Of a DNA stretch of 32,000 nt, positions 12,099 to 31,129 are shown piece by piece. The notes beneath the pieces are model-generated. The model was not told the DNA's origin. It made no database searches and worked only from the letters and a program-made list of their open reading frames with translations. Position numbers and translations under genes: made by a program. Origin of the DNA: Candidatus Saccharimonadota bacterium. Its GTDB lineage: Bacteria > Patescibacteriota > Saccharimonadia > Saccharimonadales > Saccharimonadaceae. The DNA lies in assembly GCA_039920285.1 (NCBI GenBank), contig JBDSDX010000001.1, positions 330,001-362,000 of the forward strand, written 5' to 3'. How positions within the stretch are numbered: position 1 is the first letter of the stretch; each line of letters begins with the position of its first letter.

Positions 12099-13994
12099 TT
12101 AGTTAACGACAAAGCTTGTTGAGGTTGTTCCACATCCACATCCTGTGTAAAGATACAGAATATTTGTGGTTGTGACGTATCGCAAAATGTCTGTTTTGTT
12201 ATCGCCAGTGTAGTCCCAACCACTGGTCACGCGGTTATTTAACCAACCACTTCCTTGTGTCGAGTTTGACGTCACAAATCCGGCTCCGTCACCTTGATAG
12301 AATATAAGTGTTCCAGCACTGTTTGTCACGAGAATATCTCCCTTGCCGTCAACACTAAAGTCGCCACCGCCGAATACTGTATCTGCTGCATAACCATTCC
12401 AGCCACCCCCGGATGAGGCAATGAAGGTAGCGACGCCGCCACTACTCAAGCCCCACCTGCCGAGAGCATTTGCATGACAGTTCACGATCACGGTAGTGTT
12501 ATTAGTGTATTGGAACGGCGAAGCGAAGACATCCATACAGCTACTAAATGATCCTGCAGGTGCGCTGGTGATAGTGCTGCCAGAGATGCTATATTGTCCA
12601 TTAGATTTGAGAGCATAGCCACCACCCCCTGTGTCAGTCCACCACATAATTGGTGCTGTGCCGCTCGGTAATGTTCCTGGTCCAATGAAACTCACGACGC
12701 TGGAACCAATGTTAGTGAGCAAGATACCCCCATTAAATGTCCCGTCACCATTACCAGTATGGAGGCGAACATCACCGATACTGGTATACCCGAGGATGTC
12801 GTTCTTCCCATCATTGTTCCAGTCACCCACACCGGTAAGTTTTGTGTAACTTGACCATGGGTTTGTACCAGTGGTGTATCCAAGTACGCCGGTCGAGTAT
12901 GCGGTCGTTCCTGTAGAATTTGTCGCAGAGACTTTGAAGAAATACCCGGTGGCAGTGGTGAGACCAGTAATAGTTTTAGTGGTTGAAGTTATATTAGAAA
13001 TTGTCGTTGGACTAGAGAAGCTACTTGTTTTCGAATATTGCAGTGTGTAACTTGTTGGTGTACCCGAAGGTGAAGTCCAATTTACTGTCGCACTAGTGTT
13101 TGTATTACCACTCGTATTTACTTTCGTTGGAGGACCACTCAGCGCGGATTGTACTGGCGGGGCAGCAACGGTTGTGGCATTCGTTTCAAGTCGTGTTGCT
13201 CGCATTGTGGCAGCTCGTTCGATAGTACGACCTGCGACTACTTGGTTTGCAGTCAGAGAAACAACGACCGTAGGAGTGGAGAAGAGGGCGGTGTTCCGAT
13301 CTGTAACGGACGAACTGGTGTTAGAAGCAACAGTGTTTGGCAGAGTAGCATTTGTCGTCGTGAAATATTGAATAAAGAAGCTACTTGGATTCACACCATC
13401 AACGAGCCTGACGTCGTTTGTTTTACAGAACGGATCGGTATATCCAACAGAACAACTTGGACGCTGCCACGGAGTGGAACAGCCTGTTGACGCGTAGTTT
13501 GAAGGCATAACTGTCCGTCGCCAGAGAGTCGTTCCTTTTATGTAATAGATGACATTCATTGTCATCGGGACGTTGTTTTGTACGAGCGCAGTACCACACC
13601 CATTTGGTTGATTGGAAAGATAGACAACACCAGAGCCTAAGGTGAGGGGATTATCATTTGTGACCAGGACATTAAGGATGAGCATTGGGCCAGTTGCTCC
13701 GCCGACATTTGTGAAATTAGATGTCGCGTCGTTGTAACCTTGTGGAGATGCAGGTGTAATATTATTTTGTGCCAAGAAAACCGAACTGAGTTTTACGTCC
13801 TGTTCGATGCGGTTCATCGTATCCTGGACGTTATAGGTGAGTTGATTTGAACCACGCGATGCTAAAACTTCACCAGTCACGCTAATGATAACAGTGAGGA
13901 ATGCACCGATAGTAAGAATAACGATAGGTGCGATGATGAGGATTTCAATAAGTGTGAATCCTTTTTGTGAAGTACGCTGGCGAAACAGTGACAT
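12099..13994 (-). CDS. Large minor (pseudo)pilin with Fn3 module and FG-GAP/VCBS-type repeats (candidate tip adhesin)
   Basis: The prepilin motif is ..TSQKG/FTLIEILII. Residues about 287-372 look Fn3-like (..ATVNWTSPSGTPTSYTLQYSKTSSF...TGLTTATGYFFKVSATNSTG). Residues about 380-631 carry FG-GAP-like calcium-binding boxes (GDWNNDGKNDILGY, GGGDFSVDGKGDILV, WDYTGDNKTDILRY). The start overlaps the upstream stop as TAATG. Confidence 0.8.
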   Translation of the reverse strand: MSLFRQRTSQKGFTLIEILIIAPIVILTIGAFLTVIISVTGEVLASRGSNQLTYNVQDTMNRIEQDVKLSSVFLAQNNITPASPQGYNDATSNFTNVGGATGPMLILNVLVTNDNPLTLGSGVVYLSNQPNGCGTALVQNNVPMTMNVIYYIKGTTLWRRTVMPSNYASTGCSTPWQRPSCSVGYTDPFCKTNDVRLVDGVNPSSFFIQYFTTTNATLPNTVASNTSSSVTDRNTALFSTPTVVVSLTANQVVAGRTIERAATMRATRLETNATTVAAPPVQSALSGPPTKVNTSGNTNTSATVNWTSPSGTPTSYTLQYSKTSSFSSPTTISNITSTTKTITGLTTATGYFFKVSATNSTGTTAYSTGVLGYTTGTNPWSSYTKLTGVGDWNNDGKNDILGYTSIGDVRLHTGNGDGTFNGGILLTNIGSSVVSFIGPGTLPSGTAPIMWWTDTGGGGYALKSNGQYSISGSTITSAPAGSFSSCMDVFASPFQYTNNTTVIVNCHANALGRWGLSSGGVATFIASSGGGWNGYAADTVFGGGDFSVDGKGDILVTNSAGTLIFYQGDGAGFVTSNSTQGSGWLNNRVTSGWDYTGDNKTDILRYVTTTNILYLYTGCGCGTTSTSFVVN

Positions 13995-15019
13995 TATTTT
14001 GCACCTCCAGCGTAGAGACTCGATATCTCTGTCGACGAGAGCGCGCGGTCGTACATTCTCATATCATCAATAGATCCTGTCCAGTATGCTGAACCTCCCG
14101 CGTAGTACCCCAAGTCAAGAGTTTGACCTGTTTTTGTATACGTTCCGGCGGTCGCACTGCTTGCAATAACCGAACCATTCCGGTAGATTTTCGTTCCTGT
14201 TGAAGCAGATGCAGTAAAGGTATAGAGTGACCAAGTATTAAACCAAGCTACATTGAATGGGGTAGTGAGTCTTCCGGTTGTTTGATTACCAAAATCCCAA
14301 TACATTGTATTACCGGTGTAGGGAATTAAGATCTGAATAATACTCCCTGCAGCACCTACAGGATTAGTTGTCATAAATGATGCGGACGCAGAACTTGGCT
14401 TTGCCCATACCGAGATAGTAATCGCATTCATTGGCGACGGCATACTATTGGTGTCAAAACGTATATACGAGTTTGTCCCACTCAGACTATATGCTGTATT
14501 CTCGGTGCCGCTCGGTCCAGGAACTGGCGTGGCGTTAGTTAGGGCACCATTTGATGAACCAACTGAAGTATTTGCATCACCATTAAATTTCCACCAACCA
14601 ATAAGTCCGTCTGTTATATCGGCTGATTGTAGTCCTGAGCCATTCACGAAAGTAGCATACTCAGTTGTTTGTTGAGGTGTGTTGTAGCTAATCGTTGCTT
14701 CAACTTTTGAGAGTCCTGTCGTTGAATAACTAGGACAGCTGATAGAAACGGAGATTGTTACGGTGTCGAGTCCGTCTATGTCGATAGGTGAATTTGTGAG
14801 AGGAGTTTGTGCAGTACAAGGGTCTGTAGCAGATGGCGAATAACGACGGAGGTAGTCGTAGGCAACATTTCCTGCACGAGATTCCGAACGTGCTTGACCG
14901 CCGTCTTTTATAACAATATTAAAAAGCTGATAGCCAGCGATCAAAAAAGCCGCTGCCACAAAGAGGGTGATTAGTAGCTCGACTGCAGTAAATCCAGCCT
15001 GAGGATATCGACGTATCAT
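13994..15019 (-). CDS. Minor pilin with C-terminal LamG/concanavalin-like lectin-fold domain
   Basis: The prepilin motif is ..YPQAG/FTAVELLITLFVAAAFLIAG. The C-terminal roughly 200 aa carry LamG_3-type boxes (LIGWWKFNGDANTSVG ... SIDDMRMYDRALSSTEISSLY). An ATGA overlap links it to the upstream gene. Confidence 0.8.
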   Translation of the reverse strand: MIRRYPQAGFTAVELLITLFVAAAFLIAGYQLFNIVIKDGGQARSESRAGNVAYDYLRRYSPSATDPCTAQTPLTNSPIDIDGLDTVTISVSISCPSYSTTGLSKVEATISYNTPQQTTEYATFVNGSGLQSADITDGLIGWWKFNGDANTSVGSSNGALTNATPVPGPSGTENTAYSLSGTNSYIRFDTNSMPSPMNAITISVWAKPSSASASFMTTNPVGAAGSIIQILIPYTGNTMYWDFGNQTTGRLTTPFNVAWFNTWSLYTFTASASTGTKIYRNGSVIASSATAGTYTKTGQTLDLGYYAGGSAYWTGSIDDMRMYDRALSSTEISSLYAGGAK

Positions 15020-15519
15020 TGGTTTTTACTCATGACCATATAGACGGTATTATCTTTTTCGAGACGGTAGTAGATATTGTACTTTCGACAGTCGAGTCCG
15101 TTACTACAGATTGCTCCAGTTGAATCAATTGGTTGGTAGACGTACTGAGAAATAGTAGGTTGTGGTGCGACACCAGTCGTGGTTTGAACGGAGTTGGTGG
15201 CTTGAATGAAACTCGTGAAGTTGTTAGATGCTCCGGGTGCGGTGAATGTTTTTGGGTCTGCGTCAGGTATGTTTGGTTGGAAGTTTGTAGGGGTTGTTAC
15301 TTGAACAGCAGGATAGTTGCCAGGTATTCCATTAACTGGTGAGCCGGCACTGTAGAAGTTTTCCATCCAGGTTTGGATTGTCGCAATATCAGCGGTTCGT
15401 TCGTTATCTCGAGATGCGACTTGGTTGCCGTTGATGTTGACGATCGTCAGGATCAACAAGATTCCCATAATCGTAATCGTAATAATCAGTTCAACCACCG
15501 TAAACCCGCGCTGTTTCAT
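15016..15519 (-). CDS. Minor pilin (prepilin-type N-terminal cleavage/methylation domain protein)
   Basis: MKQRG/FTVVELIITITIMGILLILTIV. It is the first gene of the coupled operon 15519->12099. Confidence 0.8.
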   Translation of the reverse strand: MKQRGFTVVELIITITIMGILLILTIVNINGNQVASRDNERTADIATIQTWMENFYSAGSPVNGIPGNYPAVQVTTPTNFQPNIPDADPKTFTAPGASNNFTSFIQATNSVQTTTGVAPQPTISQYVYQPIDSTGAICSNGLDCRKYNIYYRLEKDNTVYMVMSKNQ

Positions 15520-15559
15520 GTCTCTAGCATAAGAGGTTTGGCCTCAAATCGCAAGAGGA

Positions 15560-16582
15560 CTAGATCTCGAGTGGTTCTTGTTCAATTTGAATACGGAATT
15601 TATCTCTGACGCCACCAATAATTTCATCACGCGCTTGTTGTAAATCAGCGAAGCTTGCGGCGGATTCGTTGATGAGAACAAGGGTATTTTTATCGTGAAC
15701 ACGCATGCCGTGCAGAAGTTGGCCTTTAAAGCCGACTTGTTCGATCAGCCATCCAGTAGGAATCTTCACCATACCATCAGGCATACCGAATGTTTTCATA
15801 TCAGGATAGGTGCGTTTTAATTCATCAGCCTGCCACTGTTCGACGACGGCATTCTTAAAGAAGGATCCGGTGTTTGGTTTGACGGCAGGGTCGGGAAGTT
15901 TATCGGTCCGAATCGCAATAACAGCATCTCGAACAATCTGCTGGGTGAATATTTTAATATTATGCTCGTCGAAATACGTTTGAAGGGCCTCATAAAATGG
16001 TGCTTGTGGCAAACTTTTTGATAGTTTGACAGTAATACTAGTGATAACATAGCGTCCTTTTTGGTCACCACGAAAGATGCTGTGACGGTAGGAAAAACCA
16101 CATTCTTCATTTTGGAGACTTACTATTTGATTGGTTTGTGAGTCGTAGGCCTCCACCGACACGAGCGTGTCTGAAATCTCTTGTCCATATGCACCCACAT
16201 TTTGGACTGGCGCTGCGCCGACTGTGCCCGGGATTGCCGACATTGCTTCAATACCACTGAGGCGCATGTCGACTGTCTTCTTTACGGTCTCGTCCCATCC
16301 CTCCCCTGCCCCGATTTTTATTGTTGTTGTATTTATGTCATCACTAACGATATCGAAACCGGGGATACGGATACGGATAATAAGACCACTAAATCCCTCG
16401 TCTTTGGCAACCACATTGCTGCCGCCGCCTAATATAAATACGGGTAATTGTTTAGAAATAGCATTGCGGTAAACAGCGAGGAGTTCATCAATAGTACGAA
16501 CTTCAACAAAAAATCGAGCAGGGCCACCGAGTTTCATAGTGGTGAAGTTTTTAAGCGGGATGTTTGTATGGACTTCCATCAT
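15560..16582 (-). CDS. murB: UDP-N-acetylenolpyruvoylglucosamine reductase
   Basis: It has the FAD-binding N-terminal boxes NIPLKNFTTMKLGGPARFF and VFILGGGSNVV. The C-terminal MurB domain contains ..GSFFKN.. and ..GWLIEQVGFKG... An ATGA overlap links it to the upstream HIT gene. Confidence 0.9.
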   Translation of the reverse strand: MMEVHTNIPLKNFTTMKLGGPARFFVEVRTIDELLAVYRNAISKQLPVFILGGGSNVVAKDEGFSGLIIRIRIPGFDIVSDDINTTTIKIGAGEGWDETVKKTVDMRLSGIEAMSAIPGTVGAAPVQNVGAYGQEISDTLVSVEAYDSQTNQIVSLQNEECGFSYRHSIFRGDQKGRYVITSITVKLSKSLPQAPFYEALQTYFDEHNIKIFTQQIVRDAVIAIRTDKLPDPAVKPNTGSFFKNAVVEQWQADELKRTYPDMKTFGMPDGMVKIPTGWLIEQVGFKGQLLHGMRVHDKNTLVLINESAASFADLQQARDEIIGGVRDKFRIQIEQEPLEI

Positions 16583-17010
16583 TTTGTGATCCGTATATAT
16601 GGTTTGCGAATAGAGAAGACAAATGTAGTGATTGAATCACCTGGTTTAATGAGGTGGGTGTGATAATGGGCGATAGTACGTATCTTTGAGGTCGAAGCGC
16701 GAGTATAAGTATTGTAGCCTTTGATTGTGTATTTCTCGAGGAGATCGAGATATTCGATTTTTTGCTCATCAGTCAGTTTGTTCAAGTTGCCGATGTGCTG
16801 CTTTGGAGTGATCATCAGGTGTTCAGCAACGGGTTGATTATCCCACAGTGTGTAGGGGAAATTGTTTCGGACGACTTGGAACGATTTTGTTTCAGCAATA
16901 TAGCGCTGATCACCTTTTTTGACACCACAGAATACACATACGTCCGTGTCGGCGGTTCTGAGATGTTTTCGGTAAGCGTGTTCTGCCTTTGTGGTGCGGG
17001 TTGCGGTCAT
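16579..17010 (-). CDS. HIT-family nucleotide hydrolase/transferase-like protein
   Basis: 143 aa with a histidine-triad-like box IAHYHTHLIKP near the C-terminus and a CxxC (CVFC) near the N-terminus. It is coupled to murB. Confidence 0.65.
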   Translation of the reverse strand: MTATRTTKAEHAYRKHLRTADTDVCVFCGVKKGDQRYIAETKSFQVVRNNFPYTLWDNQPVAEHLMITPKQHIGNLNKLTDEQKIEYLDLLEKYTIKGYNTYTRASTSKIRTIAHYHTHLIKPGDSITTFVFSIRKPYIRITK

Positions 17011-17068
17011 ATGTATGTATTATACACGGCTAAAGCGGAACGAACACTAGTAGTGGAAAGACCTGTTG

Positions 17069-17077
17069 TGGTATAAT
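17069..17077 (+). promoter_or_regulatory. Extended -10 promoter candidate for tRNA-Arg
   Basis: TGgTATAAT at 17069-17077, 26 nt upstream of the tRNA 5' end. Confidence 0.5.
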
Positions 17078-17103
17078 CACCTCTGTACTTCGTACAAATG
17101 TAC

Positions 17104-17180
17104 GCACCCGTAGCTCAGTGGATTAGAGCATCTGTCTTCGGAACAGAGGGTCGCAAGTTCGAATCTTGCCGGGTGTACCA
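17104..17180 (+). tRNA. tRNA-Arg (anticodon TCG), CCA encoded
   Basis: Hand-folded cloverleaf: acceptor GCACCCG/CGGGTGT, D arm GCTC..GAGC, anticodon stem TCTGT/ACAGA with loop CTTCGGA (anticodon TCG), T arm GCAAG-TTCGAAT-CTTGC, 3' ACCA. Confidence 0.92.
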
Positions 17181-17190
17181 AGAATTTATA

Positions 17191-17218
17191 AAAAACACTC
17201 CTTTTGCGGGAGTGTTTT
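17191..17218 (+). terminator. Rho-independent terminator after tRNA-Arg
   Basis: ACACTCC (17195-17201), a loop, GGAGTGT (17209-17215), then TTT. Confidence 0.55.
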
Positions 17219-17241
17219 AGATTTTAAAGCAAAATTTTGCT

Positions 17242-18561
17242 ATGCTTGGGATACAGATGGGCAAAAAACAAACAGGTTTTACAATCGTCGAACTACTCAT
17301 TGTTATTATTGTGATTGGTATTCTTGCCGCTATCACCATCGTTTCCTTCACCGGTCTCCAGAATCGTGCAAAAACAGCATCGGTCCAAAGCGACCTTGAG
17401 GCTTCACTGAAACAACTCGAGATCTTCCGGATTAATATTGGTTCTGCTGAGACATATCCGACAACAATTGACTGTAGCGCAAGTCCTGCTGCGGGTACGA
17501 TTTGTCTGCGTCCGAGCTCGGGAACGATCTACGAATATACTTATGTTGCTGGGAGTAACACCTATTGTCTGAGTGCGGTGAATGGAACAATTGCGTACAA
17601 CGTTTCCTCAACCACTCGCCAGATTCAATCTGGGGTATGTGCGGGGCATACTGCGCCAGGAGCAGTCATTATCTCTACGAGTAGTATTACATCGCTTCTA
17701 GCAGGAAGTGGTGCAGGGTCGAGCGGAAATGGAACCGGTGCAGGTGCTTCTATTAATCAGCCGAATGATGTCGCAGTTGATGCGTCCGGTAATGTGTATG
17801 TCGCTGATCTCTACGGCAACCAAGTTCGGAAGATTACTCCTGCTGGCGTGACGACTACCTTCGCATCAGGGATAGGATATCCGGAAGGATTGGAATTGGA
17901 TGCCTCGGGGAATGTCTATGTTGCAAGCTTCGGAGGTAATAATATTGTAAAGATTACGTCTTCGGGAACGGTGACAACCTTTGCGACTGGCATGTCGAGT
18001 CCACGAGGGCTGACTGTCAGTGGTACCGATATTTACGTTGCTGATACAGGCAATAATCTAATCAAGAAAATTACTTCAGCTGGTGTCGTCAGCGTCTTCG
18101 CAGGGTCAGGTGCCGCCACTTCGACCGATGGGACCGGTGCGGGCGCTTCCTTTAGCTCACCATACGCTATGGCGTCGGACGCCACCGGTAATCTTTACGT
18201 GGTTGATAATACGACAGGCAAGATCAGAAAGATAACCTCAGCAGGCGTCGTGACGACATTGGCCGGCTCGACAAGTGGGTACGCAGAAGGAACGGGTGCG
18301 GCTGCACAGTTTAATCAGCCGTCAGGAATTGGCGTGGACGCCAGTGGAAATGTGTTCGTCGGTGATTCGGTAAACAACCGTATTCGCAAGATAACCTCAG
18401 CAGGTGTCGTGACGACGGTTCTCGGCTCAGGAACTGCGGCCTATACTGAAGGTACGGGAACGGGCGCGGTCTTTAATTACCCAGCGGGAATAAGCTTTGG
18501 TTCTGATGGCACAATGTATATCGCTGACCGCGGAAATAATCGTATTCGGAAAGCACTCTAG
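17242..18561 (+). CDS. Prepilin-type N-terminus fused to a six-bladed NHL-repeat beta-propeller
   Basis: ..GKKQTG/FTIVELLIVIIVIGILAAITIVSF (an alternative start is ATG 17257). About six repeats follow with the pattern D(A/S)SGN(V/L)YVAD..(N/G)N.I(R/K)KIT..G.V(T/S)T(F/L)A, which is the NHL-repeat signature. Confidence 0.85.
   Translation: MLGIQMGKKQTGFTIVELLIVIIVIGILAAITIVSFTGLQNRAKTASVQSDLEASLKQLEIFRINIGSAETYPTTIDCSASPAAGTICLRPSSGTIYEYTYVAGSNTYCLSAVNGTIAYNVSSTTRQIQSGVCAGHTAPGAVIISTSSITSLLAGSGAGSSGNGTGAGASINQPNDVAVDASGNVYVADLYGNQVRKITPAGVTTTFASGIGYPEGLELDASGNVYVASFGGNNIVKITSSGTVTTFATGMSSPRGLTVSGTDIYVADTGNNLIKKITSAGVVSVFAGSGAATSTDGTGAGASFSSPYAMASDATGNLYVVDNTTGKIRKITSAGVVTTLAGSTSGYAEGTGAAAQFNQPSGIGVDASGNVFVGDSVNNRIRKITSAGVVTTVLGSGTAAYTEGTGTGAVFNYPAGISFGSDGTMYIADRGNNRIRKAL
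18229..18416 (+). repeat. Intragenic direct repeat marking duplicated NHL blades
   Basis: AAGATAACCTCAGCAGG[C/T]GTCGTGACGAC occurs at 18229-18257 and 18388-18416 (28/29 identical). The spacing is 159 nt, which is 53 codons, and more diverged copies lie upstream. Confidence 0.85.
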
Positions 18562-22637: not shown

Positions 22638-24818
22638 ATGCTTATGCTTTATGAGTCTTTGCTATTGATAGCGACAAATTTACTTGCGTTCATCATGGTA
22701 TTTATTGTCATGTTATCGCGCACAGTTGAAGAACGGCTTCGTTTGACGCTGATTGCAACTATCTTGAGCCTTGTTTTTTGGCAAGACACTATCTTTATTG
22801 CTGATAACTCAGCGCACGATCTCATACTCTGGAATACGATCATCTTCTTCTGGCCAACAGCTGCAATACTTAGTTGTTTCGCGTTTATTCGTGCACTACA
22901 CCGTAGTCAAACTCGTAAAGTTCAACGGTCGCGGATGACTATTCCAATGCTCATGATCGTACTTGTTCAACTTATCCCTATCGTGACGATAAATATTTTT
23001 AGTGCAGCAACCAAAACTAATGCTGGTCTAGAATTGGAACGAAGTACTGGGTATTACGTATACCTTGCCGGGTTGATCATTTCCCTCGCGCTACTTGTGA
23101 CAGAAATTATTGTTCGTCGAAGACGAAGTGGTCACGGTTCGCTTGAAAGGTATGCTATTAATGTCGTACTAGCGACCGTTATTATCGCGAGTACCTACGG
23201 GGTGATTATTAATGCAATTGTGCCTCTTCTGACAGGCGGGCAATCGTATATCGGGTTTGGGGTCATTATTATCGACATTTTCGCAATTGGTTTGAGTCTC
23301 AGTATTGCGCGTGGGCACTTAATTGATATTCGTTTCTACGCGGTTCGAACTACTGTTTATATCTTGTCGCTCGCTACTCTGGCAGTTGTCTATGCGGTGA
23401 TTGCTTACTTAGTATCGCAGTGGATATTAGGATTCGGTGCATCATCATTGCAGAACTTTATCAACATTGCGCTTGCATTGTTATTGGCATTTATTTTCCA
23501 GCCAATCCGACACTTCTTTGATCGTGTCACGAATCGAATTTTTTATCGGGATGAAATTGATAGTGACACTTTCTTCTCACATCTCAACCAAGAGTTAACG
23601 ACAACGAACGATATTCGAGATTTGATGCGGCGGACTGCGACATTTATTGCCGATGCTCTGAAATCAGAACAAGCATTCTTTTTTGTCTTCCATGGTGACC
23701 GGGCACATATTCAAGCAGGAACTGAATATCATCAAAAATTTGCCGCTCAAGATGCACGTGAGGTCGGTAAATTTATTCATGGAAAAGACATGATTGTTGC
23801 CAGTGATCTCGCGACATCAAATAGAAGCCTCTACCGCCTGATGTTGAGTAATCGTATCGCAGTTGTGTTGCCACTTCGTCGTGACGGTATCGGAATTGGA
23901 TATTTTGTACTTGGAGAGCATCGTCAAGGCGCGTATACACGTCGAGATATCAGATTACTTGGAACGGTGGCTGACGAACTGAGTATTGCTGTCCAAAATG
24001 CTCTCTCGGTCCAGGAAGTCAAAGACGTTAATTCTCACCTTGAACAACGTATTGATAGCGCGACAAAAGAACTTCGCGCCAGTAACGCGCAACTTCAGAA
24101 ACTGGATGAAGCAAAAGATGAGTTTATTAGCATGGCCTCTCACCAACTCAGAACACCGCTCACAAGTATCAAAGGCTATATTAGTATGTTGTCAGAAGGT
24201 GATGTCGGGAAAATTACTGATGAGCAGAAACATATTCTTGACGAAGCATTTATAAGTAGCGAGCGTATGGTGCGTTTGATTGGTGATTTCCTGAACGTCT
24301 CGCGGCTTCAAACAGGCAAGTTTATTATCGATAAACACCCGGCGGATTTGGGAAAGATTGTCGCGCAAGAAATCGATGGTTTAGAGACCAACGCTTCGGC
24401 TCGTAATCTGAAGTTTACCTACAAACAGCCAAAGAAATTCCCAGAATTAAATATTGATGAATCAAAGATTCGTCAGGTGATTATGAACTTCTCTGATAAC
24501 GCCATCTACTACTCAAAAGATAATTCGTCCATCAAAGTTTCTCTCAAGATTAGTGGAGAGTATGCAGAGTTTACTGTCAAAGATACAGGTATTGGTGTAC
24601 CTGATGCCGAGAAAGACCAGTTATTTAATAAGTTCTTCCGGGCGACGAATGCTCGTAAACAACGACCAGACGGTACCGGAGTGGGGCTTTTCCTTGCTAA
24701 AAAGGTGATAGATGCCCATCACGGACAGATCATTTTTGAATCAAAGGAAGGAAAGGGAAGCACTTTTGGCTTCCGTTTGCCACTTGCAAAACTACGCGTT
24801 ACTAGCGATACGAAATAG
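22638..24818 (+). CDS. Sensor histidine kinase (about 8 TM sensor region, GAF domain, HisKA, HATPase_c)
   Basis: It contains the H-box FISMASHQLRTPLTSIKGY, the N-box VIMNFSDNAIYYS, the G1 box VKDTGIGV, the F box FNKFFRA and the G2 box GTGVGLFLAK. A GAF-like segment spans about residues 330-460. The N-terminal roughly 300 aa are polytopic. Confidence 0.9.
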   Translation: MLMLYESLLLIATNLLAFIMVFIVMLSRTVEERLRLTLIATILSLVFWQDTIFIADNSAHDLILWNTIIFFWPTAAILSCFAFIRALHRSQTRKVQRSRMTIPMLMIVLVQLIPIVTINIFSAATKTNAGLELERSTGYYVYLAGLIISLALLVTEIIVRRRRSGHGSLERYAINVVLATVIIASTYGVIINAIVPLLTGGQSYIGFGVIIIDIFAIGLSLSIARGHLIDIRFYAVRTTVYILSLATLAVVYAVIAYLVSQWILGFGASSLQNFINIALALLLAFIFQPIRHFFDRVTNRIFYRDEIDSDTFFSHLNQELTTTNDIRDLMRRTATFIADALKSEQAFFFVFHGDRAHIQAGTEYHQKFAAQDAREVGKFIHGKDMIVASDLATSNRSLYRLMLSNRIAVVLPLRRDGIGIGYFVLGEHRQGAYTRRDIRLLGTVADELSIAVQNALSVQEVKDVNSHLEQRIDSATKELRASNAQLQKLDEAKDEFISMASHQLRTPLTSIKGYISMLSEGDVGKITDEQKHILDEAFISSERMVRLIGDFLNVSRLQTGKFIIDKHPADLGKIVAQEIDGLETNASARNLKFTYKQPKKFPELNIDESKIRQVIMNFSDNAIYYSKDNSSIKVSLKISGEYAEFTVKDTGIGVPDAEKDQLFNKFFRATNARKQRPDGTGVGLFLAKKVIDAHHGQIIFESKEGKGSTFGFRLPLAKLRVTSDTK

Positions 24819-25016
24819 TTCGATAATCAATAGGATGACAGCGGTTGCGATGGCGATCGTAATAATGACAGGTCGAGCGATCCGTTTGTGATCAAACCAC
24901 CACTGCCCTGCTTTGTTTCGGTTGACTGCTGATATCTTGGTGACCACTGGACGTTGGACCGCCGCATCGATGCCGGTGTAGACTTTGTTGCGTTTTTTCT
25001 TCTGCTTATTTGCCAT
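24792..25016 (-). CDS. Small basic single-TM protein (hypothetical)
   Basis: 74 aa with a Lys-rich N-terminus MANKQKKKRNK and a C-terminal TM VIITIAIATAVILLIIELF. The 3' end overlaps the kinase 3' end by 27 nt. Confidence 0.45.
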   Translation of the reverse strand: MANKQKKKRNKVYTGIDAAVQRPVVTKISAVNRNKAGQWWFDHKRIARPVIITIAIATAVILLIIELFRIASNA

Positions 25017-25114: not shown

Positions 25115-26470
25115 TTATTGGTTTAGTGCGCGACGGCTTGCAACGTAATATGCGATGCTAGCAATCAATGTACCAAGGCCAATAACGGCAACAATGTTTT
25201 CAGTTGGACCAGTGTGTGGAAGTTCTGGTGGAGTCGTTGTACAAAGACTTAAGTCTTTTGAGTACTTGCTCGCGTTGAAGTCACTTTCATTGATAGCGAC
25301 AACTTTTTTGGTTGCAAGTTCACAAACATTGATCTTACCAGGTAAACAAGTCTTGTCGACAGTAATGTTAGCAGTGTCTTCTAGTGAAGTACCGTTAACG
25401 TTTACTTTGCCGGTGTTGACGAGTGTGTTTGTACCACACAAAGGAAGTACATCATTTGCTGGGGCCTTCGCACTGAAGATCGCCCAAGCGTTTGCACCAG
25501 CAGCATAAGAACCAACATTGATTCCTGTACCGTTAGCGATGTTGTCACTGGCTTTGACACCAGTTGGGTGCTGTGAGTTACCGAATGTTGTTGAACCAGT
25601 AACGTAAGTCATACCAGCAGGAAGTGAGTCACGGAATGTAACATCATTTTCTTGAGTAGTACTTGTGTTCTTGTAGTTCAAAAGGTAGTCAACAGTTTCG
25701 TTTGGTTGTGCTTTGTAGCTTTCAACCCACTTGTTGTCACCGTGTTTGCTTACCATCTTGCTCATTGAGAACGTTGAAGGTGTTGCAAATTGTGGTTTCA
25801 CGGTAAAGCTAACGTAACCAGAGTACTGGAAACAGCCAGGGATTTTACCATCAAGTTTGTCGTAACCAAGTTTAGCACCGGTGTTTGTGAAGATAGACTC
25901 TGGAAGAGCTACTCCGTTAGGACCGAAGCCGTTACTTTCGTACTTCAATGTACCTGCAACGTATGCAAGGTTGAAGTTGTTGGCACTGGTAAACGTTGCG
26001 TGGTCATAGACACTTGCAGTTGTACCGTTGTTGCCACTCTTGTTTGCACCAACGTTTGAAGCGGTAATAATACCGTCAACTTGGATAGACTTTGCAGTCG
26101 TTGTTGGCAATGTGACTTGAGCAGTAACGTTTTCCGCAACAAGGTTGAGGCTTGAAGCAGCGTTGTTGTGAACGTACATACGGACAATGTATTCTTTGCC
26201 GCTTTGAACGTTCATGTCGTCGTACCAAACGTTCGCTGAACCAGTTTCACGGATACCAACGAAGTTTCGTTCGTCCTTGAGGTCAGTGTTCTTTTGGTCA
26301 ACGATTGAGTTAAATTGGACGTGGTCACTTGGGTTGTCAAGCGTAAACGTTTGACGGTCTGGTCCCCAGGCAAGAGCGGCGGTTGGGATAATGACTGCAG
26401 CAGCAACCATTAAAACAACAGCGCTAAAACGCTTGGGAGCACGACTGATGAGGGATGTAATCTTACTCAT
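25115..26470 (-). CDS. LPxTG-anchored cell-wall surface protein (sortase substrate)
   Basis: The C-terminus PPELPHTGPTENIVAVIGLGTLIASIAYYVASRRALNQ is an LPHTG motif plus TM plus basic tail. The N-terminal signal is ..FSAVVLMVAAAVIIPTAALA/WGPDRQTF. The start is set at ATG 26470 (GGAGA SD 6 nt upstream), while the track start 26482 is 4 codons longer. Codon usage looks like strong high expression (AAC>>AAT, GTT/GCT/GGT/ACT). Confidence 0.85.
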   Translation of the reverse strand: MSKITSLISRAPKRFSAVVLMVAAAVIIPTAALAWGPDRQTFTLDNPSDHVQFNSIVDQKNTDLKDERNFVGIRETGSANVWYDDMNVQSGKEYIVRMYVHNNAASSLNLVAENVTAQVTLPTTTAKSIQVDGIITASNVGANKSGNNGTTASVYDHATFTSANNFNLAYVAGTLKYESNGFGPNGVALPESIFTNTGAKLGYDKLDGKIPGCFQYSGYVSFTVKPQFATPSTFSMSKMVSKHGDNKWVESYKAQPNETVDYLLNYKNTSTTQENDVTFRDSLPAGMTYVTGSTTFGNSQHPTGVKASDNIANGTGINVGSYAAGANAWAIFSAKAPANDVLPLCGTNTLVNTGKVNVNGTSLEDTANITVDKTCLPGKINVCELATKKVVAINESDFNASKYSKDLSLCTTTPPELPHTGPTENIVAVIGLGTLIASIAYYVASRRALNQ

Positions 26471-26689
26471 TTGATTCTCCATTCTTGATGTATCTCGCAG
26501 ATAACATCAAAGTTATAAATATTGTTTAAACATTGTTACCGAGTTGTTAATATCGTCACAAATCAGATCATTACAATGTGCATGTCCGAGTCCAGGTGGA
26601 CTCACAAGGAGTCAAACTCTAACCATTCGTGAACTTAATCACACAATGGGAGTGAGACTCCTTGGAACAAAAAGCTATAGAACCCCGCA

Positions 26690-26725
26690 AGTGGGGCGCG
26701 TCGACCGAAGTCTTGGCGCCCCACT
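26690..26725 (-). terminator. GC-rich hairpin just after the stop of gene 26732..27895 (terminator candidate)
   Basis: AGTGGGGCGC (26690-26699) pairs with GCGCCCCACT (26716-26725), a perfect 10-bp stem, 7 nt beyond the stop codon. On the minus strand the nearest T-run (CTTTTTG) is about 16 nt further on, so it is not a textbook intrinsic terminator. Confidence 0.45.
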
Positions 26726-26731
26726 CGGGTG

Positions 26732-27895
26732 TTAGGGACAGGTAGTCATGCCAGGCGGCGGCGAACATCCCGTTGCGGGGGCGTCCACAGGTGCCGCAGA
26801 AGGCTCAGGCGCAGGCGCCGGAGCCGGATCTGGTGTTGCTACCGGGGCGGGTGCAGGAGCAGGCGGGGCCACGTATGGCGTATCCGTCGTCGGCTGCAGA
26901 ACCGTCTTGTCTCCAGGACCGTCGGTAGCAGCAGGGCCACCACCAGTTGATCCGTCACCGTTGTTAAACGGCGACTTGTCCTGACCATCCTTGCAGTTCG
27001 GATAGGTCCCGTGAGGGAATTCCGGGTACTCGGTGAGGCAGGTCTTAACAGGAATGCAGGGATTCTCATCCGTGCACTCGGGAGTGGTCCCGCCACAAGA
27101 ACTCCCGACACAGTCGGAAGCCTTGGGCGGCGTGGGCTTGCAGTCGTCACTGCTGATGTGCTCGACACGCTTGTCGAGGATGTTCAGCGCCTCGCTAGCG
27201 AGGCATCCATTCTTGTCGTTCAGACGGAGCTCGAAAGCATCCTTGTTGTCTGGACCGGCAGAAATGTAAGGGACGGGCTGCGTCTTGGGTGACGCGACCG
27301 CGGAGACTTCCCAGTTCCGGTCCGACACGAGAGGCTGAGCCTCTTGCACCGGGGTGAAACGCAACCAGATCGTGTTGACCCAGCTGCGGAACGTTTGGAA
27401 CTTGGGAGTGACGATCTTCACGCCGTCAGCCGTCTTCGCGTTGAACGCGTCGAGGCCGTTTTCGGTGATGTACGTCTTGATCTCGTTGAGCCATGCCTTG
27501 TTCTGATCGGCGCCAGGAACTTCCTGGTCCGTCCAGAGGAGCATCTCGTCGACATCCTGAGAGAGGAGGGTCGCGTTGCCGCAGCCTTCATCCAGGTATT
27601 CCGTCAGAGCGGCCTCACCGGTCGTCGCCACGAATGGCGTCGAGACGGCAGTTGCGAACTGACGGAACGCGTCGTCACCGGCCTTAACGATCCGGATCGA
27701 GTTGTCCTTGTAGTGGTTGTCGACGCAGAGCGCCTCAACAGGGATGTAATCCGTGTTGGGGTCGAACGCGACGGTTCCCGCCGGACGATCGCTTGTTGCG
27801 GAACCGATGTATCCGAAGATCAGCGGGAGCGCGATAGCGATAACTCCGAGAATGGCGGCAACGATTGCCACCACACTCCATGAGCGCTTGTTCAC
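26732..27895 (-). CDS. Island protein A: N-terminally anchored extracytoplasmic protein with a Cys-rich region and Pro/Ala-rich tail (orphan)
   Basis: 387 aa with a GTG start and a perfect SD (TTAGGAGGtcaaaGTG). The TM is WSVVAIVAAILGVIAIALPLIFGYIG. There are 12 Cys, 10 of them in the last roughly 155 aa. The tail is PPAPAPAPVATPDPAPAPAPEPSAAPVDAP..CSPPPGMTTCP. Codons are almost all C/G-ending. Confidence 0.75.
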   Translation of the reverse strand: MNKRSWSVVAIVAAILGVIAIALPLIFGYIGSATSDRPAGTVAFDPNTDYIPVEALCVDNHYKDNSIRIVKAGDDAFRQFATAVSTPFVATTGEAALTEYLDEGCGNATLLSQDVDEMLLWTDQEVPGADQNKAWLNEIKTYITENGLDAFNAKTADGVKIVTPKFQTFRSWVNTIWLRFTPVQEAQPLVSDRNWEVSAVASPKTQPVPYISAGPDNKDAFELRLNDKNGCLASEALNILDKRVEHISSDDCKPTPPKASDCVGSSCGGTTPECTDENPCIPVKTCLTEYPEFPHGTYPNCKDGQDKSPFNNGDGSTGGGPAATDGPGDKTVLQPTTDTPYVAPPAPAPAPVATPDPAPAPAPEPSAAPVDAPATGCSPPPGMTTCP

Positions 27896-28027
27896 TTTGA
27901 CCTCCTAAGGGTCATCTAGTTCCTAATTTATTGAGCCCCAGGATAGGATGGGCTTTGTGGACGTAGCAGGTATGATCCTGCTCTGGGGCGGATGTCCCAT
28001 GAAGTTCAAACTTCACGTCCTGCCCAC

Positions 28028-28828
28028 TTACGCTGCGGGCGGCGCCGGCGGAATTGCCGGGGGGTCCTGCGCTTCGAGCTCATCCGCCATTCGGCGGAGG
28101 TTGGCGGCGTTTGCAGCCCGAGCCTCCTGATCGGTGGCCGGGACTGCGGTGGCACGTCGGACGCGTCGCGCAGTGATACGGGGACTGATGATCGCACCAG
28201 CGATCGCGAGGCCCACGATGGGCCAGGCGAACCAGTGGATCGTGGTGCCGACCGCGGTAACGGTCGGCATTGCAGTCGCGATGGCAGCGTAAGCCGCCTT
28301 CACGAACCAGTCCCAGAGCAGCGCTGAGAAGAGCAGGCCGAGGCCAGCTCCAATCAACATCAGCCACCAGTTGTGGCGCCAGTCCCAGTGGGTGATCTCG
28401 TACCAGTGGTGAACCACGGGCACGGGGACCACCTGAACAGGTGGCGTCACGATGACCTCTGTCACAGCAGCCACCGGAGTGACGACTGTTGCAGCCGGCT
28501 CGGGAGCCGTCTGCGTGACAGGGGGGGTGATGTCGGCCGCGGGTGCGACCGGCTCGGCAGGCTCCTCCGGCTGGGCCGGCGGAGTTGCGGGAACGCCACG
28601 AGCCGCGTTGACGGCGGCAAGCAGCTGATCCGCGTGGTGGAGGAGGTCGTCACGCTCGTCGTCGATGCTCAGCTGCACAGCAGCAGCACCGATACGGGTG
28701 TTTTCCTCTTCCTTGGCGAGATCGTTGAGTTCCTTCGCGACCTGATCTGCGGCTTCACGCGTGTTCAGTCCGGCGGACCGGAGGTGACCACGTGCGGTGG
28801 GCAGGTTCTTGACTCGTGTAACGGACAT
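28028..28828 (-). CDS. Island protein B: coiled/acidic N-domain, Pro/Ala/Val-rich linker, Trp-rich juxtamembrane box and about 3 TM (orphan)
   Basis: 266 aa with an ATG start and the SD TTAGGAGGcaaacagaaATG. The linker is PATPPAQPEEPAEPVAPAADITPPVTQTAPEP. HHWYEITHWDWRHNWWLML carries 5 Trp in 19 aa. Hydrophobic segments follow, then a basic/Ala-rich tail. Confidence 0.7.
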   Translation of the reverse strand: MSVTRVKNLPTARGHLRSAGLNTREAADQVAKELNDLAKEEENTRIGAAAVQLSIDDERDDLLHHADQLLAAVNAARGVPATPPAQPEEPAEPVAPAADITPPVTQTAPEPAATVVTPVAAVTEVIVTPPVQVVPVPVVHHWYEITHWDWRHNWWLMLIGAGLGLLFSALLWDWFVKAAYAAIATAMPTVTAVGTTIHWFAWPIVGLAIAGAIISPRITARRVRRATAVPATDQEARAANAANLRRMADELEAQDPPAIPPAPPAA

Positions 28829-28986
28829 TTCTGTTTGCCTCCTAAAGGCGATTTTTGTGAGTGAGCGGAGGGCTTCCTCCGGTGCTGCATGTCGTATTGT
28901 CCGAAGACTTTACAACGATACTTCTTGGAGGAGGACCCTCCAGCAAACTCACGACGAAAGTCGGGAGCTGCGCGCCAATCAACCAG

Positions 28987-29000
28987 ACCTATATATAGGT
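28987..29000. promoter_or_regulatory. Perfect 14-bp palindrome in the AT-rich divergent control region (operator candidate)
   Basis: ACCTATATATAGGT at 28987-29000 equals its own reverse complement. It lies between the divergently oriented island gene sets. Confidence 0.4.
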
Positions 29001-29324
29001 GGGTGATTAACTGACGCGCAGCTTCCGAAGACAAACGGAATGATGATTGGTTCTATAGCTTAGTGCGTGTATAAACATGTAATAAAACACGTTCAGGACA
29101 TGCACTGTAATGATCCGATTTGTTAACGTCCTATTCACCCTGGTTAGGCTCTCACACCTCACCCGTGAATGATCTTTACAATATACCACAAAGATCGATA
29201 AATGTCAATAACTTAAGCAATATATAATACAAAAGCACAAGCTTTTTGAGAATAGCGAATTAACAGATACAGATACTACTGATAGTACCCATGAATGAGA
29301 TGGCACCGCTACATGTACGGTGTT

Positions 29325-29423: not shown

Positions 29424-29915
29424 ATGTCAACTCGCAAGGACAGCTACACCGTCAAACGGAGTAGCGCTGGGAAGCAGTCCACGCGTTCGTCACGCAAGTC
29501 GCCAAAGGGTCAGCGCATTCACAAGCGCTCAGCTTGGGCCGCGCAGGTGCACGGCAATGCCAAGCGTCCCGGTCTCATCGCTCACCCGAACGATGAGCTG
29601 ATCAAGAAGACGCTCTGTGAGCTGATCAACTTCTACCACAGCAGTGGTCAGAAGGAGGTCTTCGCCAGCATTGTCGCTGACCTCAGTAGTGAAGGCGTCC
29701 GTCTCATCGTCGAGATCGACGGCCCGAGGATCAAGAGCCTGCGTAAGGTTCGTGATCCCTACGACCTGGTCTGCAAGGCTCTCAAGCTCAAGCGGCGCCT
29801 CAACTATGAGGCAGCCAAAGATGCTGTCGTAAAGGAGCGTGAGGCAAAGCGACAGGCCGGCAGGCCACAGCAGTACACTCAGCAGCCCCACCTCTCACTG
29901 GTGGGCGTGCAATGA
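29424..29915 (+). CDS. Island protein C: small protein with a highly basic N-terminus (orphan; nucleic-acid binding is plausible)
   Basis: 163 aa. The N-terminal 45 aa are rich in K/R/S (KRSSAGKQSTRSSRKSPKGQRIHKRSAW). The C-terminus has a basic helix, KEREAKRQAGRPQQ. GC is about 58-67%. Confidence 0.65.
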   Translation: MSTRKDSYTVKRSSAGKQSTRSSRKSPKGQRIHKRSAWAAQVHGNAKRPGLIAHPNDELIKKTLCELINFYHSSGQKEVFASIVADLSSEGVRLIVEIDGPRIKSLRKVRDPYDLVCKALKLKRRLNYEAAKDAVVKEREAKRQAGRPQQYTQQPHLSLVGVQ

Positions 29916-30055
29916 CGCGAGATGAGGTCACCCCCTCTTCCGCTGCAAACGATCACATGATTGTTCTGACCGAACCGCCACCACAAGTGATACGGAACGG
30001 TCGCATTAGCCTGGTAACGCCAGGATGGCAGCGACGCGAGGGAGAAACCCCCTAA
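29912..30055 (+). CDS. Island small ORF (47 aa), translationally coupled by an ATGA overlap
   Basis: It is below the track's size cutoff. ATG 29912 overlaps the TGA stop (29913-29915) of the upstream gene. It encodes MTRDEVTPSSAANDHMIVLTEPPPQVIRNGRISLVTPGWQRREGETP and stops at TAA 30053-30055, 7 nt before a 12-bp hairpin. Confidence 0.4.
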   Translation: MTRDEVTPSSAANDHMIVLTEPPPQVIRNGRISLVTPGWQRREGETP

Positions 30056-30061
30056 CTTCAT

Positions 30062-30148
30062 GGGTGGAGTAGACGGTAGGCTCACAAGCCAATGACCATC
30101 TACTCCACCCGGAAGTACCATCTAACTACCCCTAAAGGGTGGTTTTTT
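30062..30148 (+). promoter_or_regulatory. Alternative-hairpin (attenuator/terminator-like) element
   Basis: GGGTGGAGTAGA (30062-30073) pairs perfectly with TCTACTCCACCC (30099-30110). The CCACCC part (30105-30110) could instead pair with a second GGGTGG (30137-30142), which is followed directly by T6 (30143-30148). A CCTGG-taacg-CCAGG hairpin lies upstream at 30010-30024. Confidence 0.4.
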
Positions 30149-30149
30149 G

Positions 30150-30178
30150 TTGCAAAAGATACAGAGTTGTTGTAAAAC
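30150..30178 (+). promoter_or_regulatory. Sigma70-like promoter candidate for island gene 30271..30873
   Basis: TTGCAA (30150-30155), a 17-nt spacer, then TAAAAC (30173-30178). Confidence 0.35.
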
Positions 30179-30270
30179 AAGGACAAGCTGTAAGTGTGAC
30201 GCACAGAGTCGCCACTACCAATACGGGAAGCAGTATTGGATGCAAACGCACATTGAAGTCTGGGAGAATT

Positions 30271-30873
30271 ATGACCGCTCAATCCGCACTACGCCGCCAC
30301 CAGTTGGGACAGGTTCCCGTCGAGAAGTATTTCGACGAGACCAGTGACGACATGGGAGCGACGCTGGCCGCTATCCGTTACAAGATAGTAGCCGTGTTTC
30401 TGAGAGCAACCGACCCCGCCACGGGCCGGACGACCGGAAGGGACAACTGCATCATCGGTGTGAACGACGAGATCTCTGACCTCGTCACTTATGTGACCGA
30501 ACGCATCAACCTGCGCCGTGAATTCGGCCTGAGGGAGTTGCATTACGGGCTTCGCGACGTCGAGAAGCACACATTGGCAACTCTGTCCCGACGAGATCGG
30601 GAACAGATTGCCGGGAAAGTTCGCGCCAAACTCATTTGCATGGCCATGTTGGCTATGCGTGAGAAGCACTTCCTATACTGGATGGATGGTCGCTGGTGTT
30701 TCACCTCCGACCTTCGGGACGAACATGACCACCTGGCGCAAGTCATGAGGGCCAAGGACAACTCCTACCACGGTGACAGACGGAACTGGCACGGCAAACC
30801 TGCGAAACAGGGGAGACGTCGCACCAAACAGCTCCGCATGGCTCCGGGTACTTCCATCGGTAGTACTTCCTAG
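30271..30873 (+). CDS. Island protein D: 200-aa cytoplasmic orphan with a basic C-terminus
   Basis: The start is set at ATG 30271 (SD GGGAGA 5 nt upstream), in frame with the track's longer 30139 start. The sequence begins MTAQSALRRHQLGQVPVEKYF and ends ..HGKPAKQGRRRTKQLRMAPG. GC is about 60%. I recognise no family. Confidence 0.65.
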   Translation: MTAQSALRRHQLGQVPVEKYFDETSDDMGATLAAIRYKIVAVFLRATDPATGRTTGRDNCIIGVNDEISDLVTYVTERINLRREFGLRELHYGLRDVEKHTLATLSRRDREQIAGKVRAKLICMAMLAMREKHFLYWMDGRWCFTSDLRDEHDHLAQVMRAKDNSYHGDRRNWHGKPAKQGRRRTKQLRMAPGTSIGSTS

Positions 30874-31054: not shown

Positions 31055-31129
31055 GGTCTCATCGTCTAACGGTTAGGACACCAGGTTTTCATCCTGGCAA
31101 TCGGAGTTCGATTCTCCGTGAGATCACCA
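31055..31129 (+). tRNA. tRNA-Glu (anticodon TTC), CCA encoded
   Basis: Acceptor GGTCTCA/TGAGATC, D arm GTCT..GGAC, anticodon stem CCAGG/CCTGG with loop TTTTCAT (anticodon TTC), T arm CGGAG-TTCGATT-CTCCG, 3' ACCA. Length is 75 nt. Confidence 0.92.

Follow-up and report, generated by a model that had tools for sequence, protein, structure and literature searches.

In a 32,000-nucleotide stretch of a Candidatus Saccharimonadota genome (assembly GCA_039920285.1, contig JBDSDX010000001.1, positions 330,001 to 362,000; hereafter the window, to which all coordinates refer), we analysed two adjacent minus-strand genes, A (26732-27895, 387 amino acids, GTG start) and B (28028-28828, 266 amino acids, ATG start). 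In our reading, to which we assign a probability of about 0.6, the two genes are the variable, exchangeable middle of a conserved Saccharibacteria envelope locus; their products would form a strain-specific surface complex, and the complementary sequences that bracket the pair would close as a stalk. The structural and evolutionary description of the locus is very probably correct. That the complex acts specifically as a strain-specific surface determinant is a tentative proposal, with odds somewhat below even.

The locus opens with the promoter and a structured leader; its genes are, in order, a B-like gene, an A-like gene, a CLIPPER (DUF11)/LPxTG gene and a gene for a 74-amino-acid membrane protein. 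A word-indexed search with A returned only seven relatives, and every contig coding one of them keeps the order B-like gene, A-like gene and CLIPPER (DUF11) gene with an LPxTG-type signal. A gene for a 73-74-amino-acid KKKRNK protein follows where the contig extends far enough, and on two long relative contigs genes for a GAF histidine kinase and then FolD come next, as in the window. Further loci of the same order were reached via a non-coding motif alone. This motif, an invariant part of the leader, found 57 stretches from about 45 species-level genomes, nearly all labelled Saccharibacteria, and a metagenome scan with it added at least 120 more. When a profile of the A family was searched against 1.84 billion representative proteins, we obtained 320 matches at E <= 1e-3 and 185 at E <= 1e-10. 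The few members that bear names belong to Saccharimonadales, and 149 of the 155 members listed align over at least 150 amino acids to genes in Saccharibacteria loci. By these searches, the predicted A family is Saccharibacteria-centred, with at least 320 members, and the A/B locus appears across many Saccharibacteria (order Saccharimonadales) in a fixed position. A preliminary description of the pair had named clear homology to housekeeping proteins widespread in Patescibacteria as evidence against its own reading; homologues of the locus and of the A family are indeed widespread, and they are lineage-specific surface genes, not housekeeping genes.

The CLIPPER gene (25115..26482, minus strand) codes for a surface protein with an LPHTG sortase signal, a transmembrane (TM) helix and a basic (RR) tail; it scores above the cut-off for Pfam PF01345 (E = 7.6e-6), matches TIGR01451 (E = 1.4e-10) and is present in 43 loci. 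CLIPPER domains build the stalks of fibrillar adhesins (PMC12617251). The 74-amino-acid protein encoded next (24792..25016, minus strand) has the KKKRNK N-terminus and a C-terminal TM helix. Of the genes behind the leader, the one at the B-like position codes for a cytoplasmic N-terminal part followed by TM helices; in several low-GC lineages, the pair gives way to one long gene for a cytoplasmic part, a TM helix and an ectodomain.

Within this fixed frame, the pair changes rapidly. Identity to the closest relative is 87% for FolD, 87% for the CLIPPER protein, 82% for the 74-amino-acid protein and about 70% for A; B, the fastest-evolving gene here, reaches 32% and over the TM region only. Between loci L005 and L050, identity is 96% in the leader and 83.5% in the stretch that starts with the last third of A; neither B nor the first 70% of A shows detectable similarity. 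The N-domains of their A proteins are unrelated and the C-terminal module is common to both (VCPP..PHGT.PVCKD, then PDPAPAP.PEP, then PATG.SCAPGI.VC); it is the part of A that is kept when the cassette is swapped. In a larger sample with flanks 87-100% identical, cassettes were 95%, 79% or 77% identical, and in two comparisons with flanks 87-98% identical, 8-15% of the cassette aligned. B and the N-domain of A are thus swapped as a block between genomes with near-identical flanks. An envelope pair had been proposed for A and B in the preliminary description, and an anchored, Cys-rich exported protein A with a membrane protein B, evolving and exchanged as a unit, agrees with that proposal. We also observed that the short contigs L001, L006 and L008 begin inside B or exactly at the leader (L006 at the left repeat arm, IR-L), as expected if the region varies within populations.

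The rates of nonsynonymous (dN) and synonymous (dS) substitution were compared between the cassette and its neighbour. In the closest pair of loci, L095/L168, dN, dS and dN/dS are 0.045, 0.137 and 0.33 for gene 1, 0.021, 0.088 and 0.24 for gene 2, and 0.006, 0.108 and 0.05 for the CLIPPER gene; the corresponding values in L005/L008 are 0.226, 0.431 and 0.52, then 0.229, 0.877 and 0.26, and 0.008, 0.212 and 0.04. Overall, dN/dS ranges from 0.24 to 0.52 in the cassette versus 0.04-0.14 in the adhesin gene, and dN in the cassette exceeds dN in the adhesin gene next to it by a factor of 4-28. Since dS of the cassette equals that of the CLIPPER gene in the closest pair (0.09-0.14 versus 0.11), as it does in L077/L129, there is no sign of local hypermutation. 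A diversity-generating or targeted hypermutation system was rejected on this ground, and no reverse transcriptase was found among the window open reading frames scanned. The pair evolves with constraint that is far weaker or in part diversifying, and alleles are exchanged besides.

A constant place beside an adhesin gene would also be expected if the pair were dedicated to the assembly, export or anchoring of the CLIPPER/LPxTG adhesin (a sortase-positioning platform is one example) and changed quickly only through weak constraint. The pair always adjoins the adhesin gene and is maybe co-transcribed with it, the C-terminal module of A is conserved, dN/dS is below 1, and a sortase gene lies nearby in L004/L005. 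Such a factor should be conserved together with an adhesin that is itself 87% conserved, yet B retains 32% and whole cassettes are replaced by unrelated ones; moreover, some lineages have one long gene instead of the pair. We consider this role unlikely.

Proteins A and B

The sequence TTAGGAGG precedes both start codons, at 27901-27908 (5 nt from the GTG of A) and at 28838-28845 (9 nt from the ATG of B), and is found nowhere else in the window. Two such sites arise by chance in 14 of 100 shuffles; their placement at Shine-Dalgarno distance is non-random. The reading frame of A is backed by homologues with E-values down to 1e-157, and B is an exact match to NCBI protein ABIP50_01910 from a Candidatus Saccharimonadales metagenome-assembled genome.

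Gene A divides into two parts. The N-terminal part (27131..27895) codes for a single predicted TM anchor (residues 8-26) and a core domain (residues 40-255), and the C-terminal module (26732..27130) for a Cys-rich knot (C..PHGTYPNCKD), a Gly/Pro/Thr/Ala-rich tail and a terminal Cys-loop cap, GCSPPPGMTTCP. Ten of the 12 Cys residues lie in the last 157 residues, and the last 70 residues are 50% Pro+Ala. In B, we predict TM helices at residues 154-172 and 196-218; a 23-residue loop connects them and a basic segment comes after, an arrangement that would give a two-TM hairpin with both N- and C-termini inside the cell. The Trp box HHWYEITHWDWRHNWWLML (28355-28411), with five Trp, spans residues 140-158, and topology analysis places a coiled, acidic N-domain with a P/A/V/T linker in the cytoplasm. 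The preliminary description had anticipated most of this, namely, identical Shine-Dalgarno contexts, one GTG and one ATG start on the minus strand, the anchor, 10 clustered Cys residues and Pro/Ala tail of A, and the Trp box, N-domain and linker of B. Its count of about three TM segments in B was too high; two are robust, and the third stretch (residues 121-139) is a Pro/Val linker.

Using an alignment of 100 sequences, we obtained a model of A with a mean predicted local distance difference test score (pLDDT) of 81, with residues 40-255 at pLDDT 93-99. The modelled core is an alpha/beta domain with nearly invariant residues C105, N132, W135, N194, K228, N238, D241, R243 and C252. A search of the confident model against PDB folds gave nothing significant (best E = 1.0), nor did a search against viral structure models (best E = 0.26) or a fold search with an earlier, weak model; the 100-sequence profile had no match among PDB sequences, and a Pfam scan of 100 family members gave nothing above chance and no toxin or immunity family. 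The core of A is therefore a confidently predicted domain without a detectable fold relative in these searches.

The ends of A vary across the family. Among the 155 members, the N-terminus is a single TM anchor in 89, carries a lipobox in 24, has 2-6 Trp-rich TM helices in 27 and has a cytoplasmic extension plus a TM helix in 9. The C-termini are Pro/Thr/Ala-rich tails that finish in one of a few short caps (GCSPAPGMTTC, CNPVFQDC, GDPGGF/GDPGGW); at the very C-terminus, these caps look like a docking or sorting signal. A itself was considered as a sortase (LPxTG) substrate and rejected, since it ends in ...PATGCSPPPGMTTCP and has no TM helix after residue 26. It was likewise rejected as a lipoprotein, as the TM helix at residues 8-26 is of the uncleaved type and lacks the lipobox [LVI][ASTVI][GAS]C.

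A word-indexed search with B returned B alone. The B-like proteins share only a plan, which consists of a cytoplasmic coiled/acidic N-terminal part, a two-TM hairpin and a basic tail. We rejected B as a holin because it has 266 residues with a cytoplasmic N-terminal region of about 150 (holins have fewer than about 150 in all) and no lysin or phage gene lies nearby. Across loci, the TM helices of the two genes are distributed in a complementary manner: a gene 2 with one TM helix pairs with a gene 1 of 1-4 TM helices in 13 loci, and a gene 2 with 3-4 TM helices pairs with a 140-amino-acid gene 1 product without TM helices in two loci (L013 and L054). This distribution, together with the joint replacement of B and the N-domain of A, suggests that the hairpin of B and the anchor of A cooperate in the membrane. 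A sequence homology of L013 gene 1, or of the N-terminal helices of three-TM members, to B was considered and found unsupported by BLASTP.

Joint replacement of B and the A N-domain next to a constant part of A, combined with fast evolution and an epibiotic, parasitic lifestyle (PMC10633639), recalls polymorphic toxin/immunity or bacteriocin-like modules, in which the variable domain of A would be the effector and B the membrane immunity protein. The polarity of the A/B pair is the reverse of that class. The variable part of A is N-terminal and membrane-proximal rather than a C-terminal toxin tip, the C-terminal part is conserved, and the partner gene, B, is encoded upstream. No toxin or immunity domain is present in the 100 members scanned, and the core of A is one conserved fold family-wide with nearly invariant residues, not a set of unrelated toxin folds. 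We judge a toxin/immunity function to be quite improbable.

Leader and long-range complementarity

B is preceded by a near-consensus sigma-70-type promoter (29180..29208; TTGACA-17-TGgTATATT, score 11/12, with extended -10), which, like all elements of this section, lies on the minus strand. The promoter is kept at the same place in most of 47 leader copies. Most leader copies also carry a conserved box, GCTTGTGCTTT (approximately 29245-29255 in the window), some 35-45 nt upstream of the -35 hexamer, which may be an UP element or a regulator site.

The leader begins with a stem-loop (29133..29170) that has a conserved GUGAG apical loop; per-sequence folds of the 47 copies give a mean z of -1.65, and the helix sequences differ between subtypes. 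It is followed by IR-L (29096..29122, CAAATCGGATCATTACAGTGCATGTCC), the invariant single-stranded part of the leader and the left arm of an outer helix, by the left arm of an inner helix (29049..29061, AAGCTATAGAACC) and by a local long hairpin (28961..29028, GGAAGCTGCGCG...CGCGCAGCTCC; inverted repeat I1), the equivalent of which has an altered sequence in L005, L008 and L006. At the other end of the pair, a GC-rich hairpin with a UUCG loop (26691..26724) stands directly 3' of the A stop codon. It is kept in all relatives, has no adjoining U-run and was not predicted to be an intrinsic terminator. After it come the right arm of the inner helix (26672..26684, GGTTCTATAGCTT) and IR-R (26558..26587, GGACATGCACATTGTAATGATCTGATTTG), which forms the outer helix's right arm and contains a 2-nt bulge. 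A further hairpin, TTGAT..ATCTGCGAGAT..ATCAA (approximately 26493-26520), directly precedes the Shine-Dalgarno sequence of the CLIPPER gene, and its CTGCGAG core is invariant in all relatives.

The leader is far better conserved than the proteins. Its invariant stretch, CAAATCrGATCATTACAGTGCATGTCC, recurs between A and the CLIPPER gene as a reverse complement into which 2-3 nt are inserted. The version lacking these nucleotides is always in the promoter and leader unit, and the version that has them is nearly always the leader of a CLIPPER gene. When leader and A-CLIPPER spacer were treated as sense-strand RNA, the predicted duplex had an energy of -55 to -105 kcal/mol versus -32 to -62 kcal/mol for shuffled sequences, in 19/19 pairs. 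In the outer helix, 26/26 core positions pair in 27 loci, and the variation consists of 22 G.U pairs and five double compensatory changes (at three positions), with no A.C; a DNA-level repeat read from either strand would be expected to show both kinds of mismatch. With the outer helix removed, the inner flanks still pair better in cognate than in non-cognate combinations (-40.1 versus -36.5, p = 0.0075; -40.6 versus -37.6, p = 0.006). The inner helix occupies the same place with lineage-specific sequences: the leader and post-A arms are AAGCTATAGAACC and GGTTCTATAGCTT in the window, GAAGCAAGAAAAGA and TCTTTTCTTTCTTC in L047, and ATTTGTGTAGAAA and TTTCTACACAAAC in L053/L016.

With pairs kept through compensatory and wobble changes on the transcribed strand, leader and spacer would be classed as a structured cis-acting RNA, judged from covariation. 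Whether the IR-L/IR-R complementarity acts as an RNA stalk is, in our estimate, an even question. Rfam at gathering thresholds finds only tRNAs in the window and, at E <= 10, nothing in 28900-29210 or 26480-26730; a riboswitch or other known RNA is ruled out by this search. When the leaders were aligned with MAFFT, RNAalifold gave no structure, a result attributable to the leader subtypes not being aligned by structure.

An inverted repeat of about 30 bp around a 2.5-kb segment downstream of a fixed promoter, with arms that change in concert, is also what would be seen if the repeats bounded an invertible, phase-variable DNA segment of the Mu G-segment/inverton type rather than forming an RNA helix. 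However, all 30/30 motif pairs are in one arrangement and 18/18 A-family genes are on the leader strand, and there is no recombinase gene conserved nearby. The constant 2-3-nt insertion between half-sites distinguishes the arms, and the differences between arms, read on the sense strand, are G.U 22 times and A.C never. We rejected an invertible segment, which we regard as hardly credible.

In some low-GC genomes, tandem cassettes bring both arms to about 30 nt from each other, where a local hairpin would be favoured. L011, L012, L024, L098 and L106, all low in GC, have 2-4 tandem promoter and leader units before small genes (90-190 amino acids); in L012, L028 and L024, leader-type and CLIPPER-type arms lie about 30 nt apart, as if bracketed cassettes stood in tandem.

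High GC content and genomic surroundings

The pair differs in composition from its surroundings, as the preliminary description had stated. GC content is 0.58-0.63 over A and B versus a background of 0.44-0.46, and GC at third codon positions (GC3) is 0.71 in A and 0.73 in B versus 0.36-0.47 in 16/18 other window genes (the 74-amino-acid gene has 0.56). Since the excess is at synonymous sites, the anomaly is not purely one of amino-acid composition. In related loci, the pair has a GC3 of 0.64-0.90 versus 0.40-0.50 for the CLIPPER gene, an excess that is pronounced where genome GC is intermediate and slight where it is low. In a GC map at 100-nt resolution, high values are limited to the coding blocks of A, B and, apart from these, orf163 and orf244, and AT-rich DNA (GC 0.30-0.47) makes up the promoter/leader and the A-CLIPPER spacer.

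Pro/Ala-rich linkers recall actinobacterial envelope proteins, and those of A and B, together with a GC3 of 0.71-0.73 versus about 0.40, could point to a recently acquired island or mobile cassette from a high-GC donor (an actinobacterial host, its phage or a plasmid), with the pair as an entry, exclusion or adhesin module. A tRNA-Glu gene (31055-31129) 2.2 kb upstream, a second GC-rich block (29424-30873), an IS200-type transposase upstream in L004/L005 and the inverted repeats that flank the cassette would fit such an origin. The preliminary description had called the pair out of place in this genome, but it occupies the same position beside the CLIPPER/LPxTG gene in every related locus examined, and the GC anomaly is common to relatives over 25-70% protein identity. 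Nor is there a single GC-rich island, as conserved AT-rich promoter and leader DNA splits A and B from the second block. The suggested actinobacterial, virus or plasmid link found no such relatives in plasmid, phage, viral-contig or viral-structure searches: megablast and tblastn of A and B against plasmids and phages and a viral-contig scan gave no match, Pfam, PHROGs, NCBIfam and PADLOC scans of A and B gave sub-threshold chance matches only, PADLOC had no match for A, B, orf163 or orf244, and the family is Saccharibacteria-centred. There is no integrase, phage, plasmid or defence match, every relative has the site filled, and the repeats at the flanks are inverted rather than direct; a genomic island or prophage was rejected on these grounds. 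Recent import is very improbable and largely refuted.

The high GC is instead a property of the cassette in mid-GC Saccharibacteria. As to its cause, a recombination hot spot with GC-biased gene conversion would be consistent with both the confinement of the excess to exchanged coding blocks and its constant sign.

The second GC-rich block consists of two plus-strand frames, 29424-29915 (GC3 0.73) and 30139-30873 (GC3 0.63), which point away from the leader promoter. The probable start of orf244 is M45 (30271); this frame has same-position relatives in L010 (78%) and L013 (29%) but no family match, and orf163 is an orphan. In L004/L005, about 1.3 kb upstream of the leader, we noted an IS200-type Y1 transposase gene, found in this one relative only.

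The rest of the window is ordinary chromosome, with genes for TatC, a MurA-type enzyme, SHMT, MurB, pilin-like proteins, a two-component system and FolD; it includes no ribosomal gene and no other gene of clearly high expression that could serve as a reference for codon optimisation. The pilin-like genes form a type IV cluster at 11039-18561, with the N-terminal methylation motif in 11039-11509, 11599-12084, 15016-15519 and 17242-18561; the last of these also has NHL repeats, and genes for an fn3 protein and a laminin-G-like protein lie between the pilin-like genes. At 8052-9584 (minus strand), an HTH_3 DNA-binding domain is fused N-terminally to an EPSP-synthase/MurA-type enzyme, an unusual combination.

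Proposed role and likeness to known systems

We propose that B sits in the membrane as a two-helix hairpin with its coiled, acidic N-domain and basic tail toward the cytoplasm, and that A would be tethered by its N-terminal helix (by a lipid anchor in some relatives). Outside the cell, A would present a compact domain, a disulfide-rich knot, a Pro/Ala-rich tail long enough to span the wall and a Cys-loop cap. The hairpin of B and the anchor of A would associate in the membrane and so place a surface complex beside the sortase-anchored adhesin. This complex may serve as a strain-specific determinant, either in host recognition and attachment or in escape from recognition by phage or host. Blocks are replaced by recombination in the conserved leader and in the conserved C-terminal module of A, and the bracketing complementary sequences, on the sense-strand RNA, would close a loop of about 2.5 kb as a stalk for processing or stabilisation. 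That the pair may act where epibiont and host meet, as the preliminary description suggested, is plausible. Adhesins are needed for the epibiotic growth of a cultured Saccharibacterium (PMC10633639).

Hypervariability, allele exchange, a strong promoter and a surface location are equally what a phage-exclusion or receptor-masking surface module, in an arms race with Saccharibacteria phages, would display. Such a module is inseparable from host recognition by sequence data, and the pair has no PADLOC match and no prophage context. Like a toxin/immunity function, phage exclusion as such seems quite improbable to us. A bolder proposal, which we hold to be doubtful, is that leader and spacer constitute an undescribed Saccharibacteria-specific RNA device, in which a 5' stem-loop and a long-range stalk of at least 26 bp would loop out and then process or stabilise a swappable cassette with a new fold. 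The GC3 excess would in that case be the footprint of GC-biased gene conversion at a hot spot of recombination, through which the surface that the epibiont turns to host or phage would be continually reshuffled.

It should be noted that several points weigh against A and B as a strain-specific surface complex within a stalk-bracketed locus. The surface-determinant role is deduced from architecture, neighbourhood and evolutionary rate. dN/dS is below 1 throughout, which falls short of positive selection. The genome collection holds many Saccharibacteria species, and the exact leader motif was found in just about 45 of them, so that the locus in its present form may be restricted to part of the class. 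The association of B with A is deduced from architecture, and BLASTP gave no link between the B hairpin and the N-terminal helices of fused forms (E = 0.16) or between L013 gene 1 and another B (E = 18). With respect to the stalk, the presence of IR-R on the IR-L transcript is putative; a strong hairpin follows the A stop codon, and the adhesin gene may have its own promoter. DNA repeats that evolve in concert could, moreover, give the look of compensatory change.

Saccharibacteria live attached to host bacteria, and the surface basis of their host specificity is largely unknown. The A/B locus offers a concrete, swappable candidate, being strongly promoted and conserved in position over many lineages, yet with its middle swapped out from one close relative to another. 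Beyond this, it brings to light a sizeable protein family whose fold is confidently predicted and has no known relative, a conserved leader with long-range RNA pairing absent from Rfam, and a clean case of local GC3 excess that does not signal recent horizontal transfer, a point relevant to the calling of islands in reduced genomes. We found no description of the A/B locus or its RNA in the literature.

The closest parallel to the exchange itself is the slpA region of Clostridioides difficile, where a variable surface-layer cassette is exchanged between strains via recombination in conserved flanks. Both are surface-protein loci with strong expression, predicted in our case, and with a diverged centre that is swapped as a block between otherwise similar genomes. 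In contrast to slpA, to which A and B have no sequence or fold relation, one breakpoint here lies inside gene A, and the unit consists of a membrane-hairpin protein and the N-domain of an anchored ectoprotein, distinct in GC3 and bracketed by complementary RNA-like elements. For the bracketing, the long-range processing stalks of 16S and 23S rRNA, with their RNase III sites, and hok mRNA with its 5'-3' fold-back pairing are comparable. In these systems as in ours, complementary sequences kilobases apart enclose the functional part, and the helix of at least 26 bp with a small bulge resembles RNase III substrates; unlike them, the A/B frame encloses a protein-coding part, belongs to no Rfam family and is known from sequence alone.

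Among bacteria of the candidate phyla radiation (CPR), a Gracilibacterium has a hypervariable extracellular protein with a single N-terminal TM anchor and Pro-rich low-complexity sequence, for which a role in attachment was proposed (PMC6851277). CPR origin, single-TM anchor, Pro-rich sequence and local hypervariability are common to both. For the Gracilibacterium protein, the variation lies in a single gene of one population and affects repeat number as well as sequence, whereas A/B is a cassette of two genes that keeps a conserved fold and is exchanged between lineages at species level; the A/B locus is described neither in that study nor in the one on adhesins in epibiotic growth (PMC10633639). 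The neighbouring gene at 25115-26482, with its LPHTG signal, is by Pfam and NCBIfam scores a member of the CLIPPER (DUF11) LPxTG fibrillar adhesins (PMC12617251), from which A and B differ in having neither a CLIPPER domain nor a sortase signal. The A/B locus would thus be of a known kind, a recombining hypervariable surface cassette, and what is new is the uncharacterised protein family that it carries and the undescribed RNA-like frame around it.

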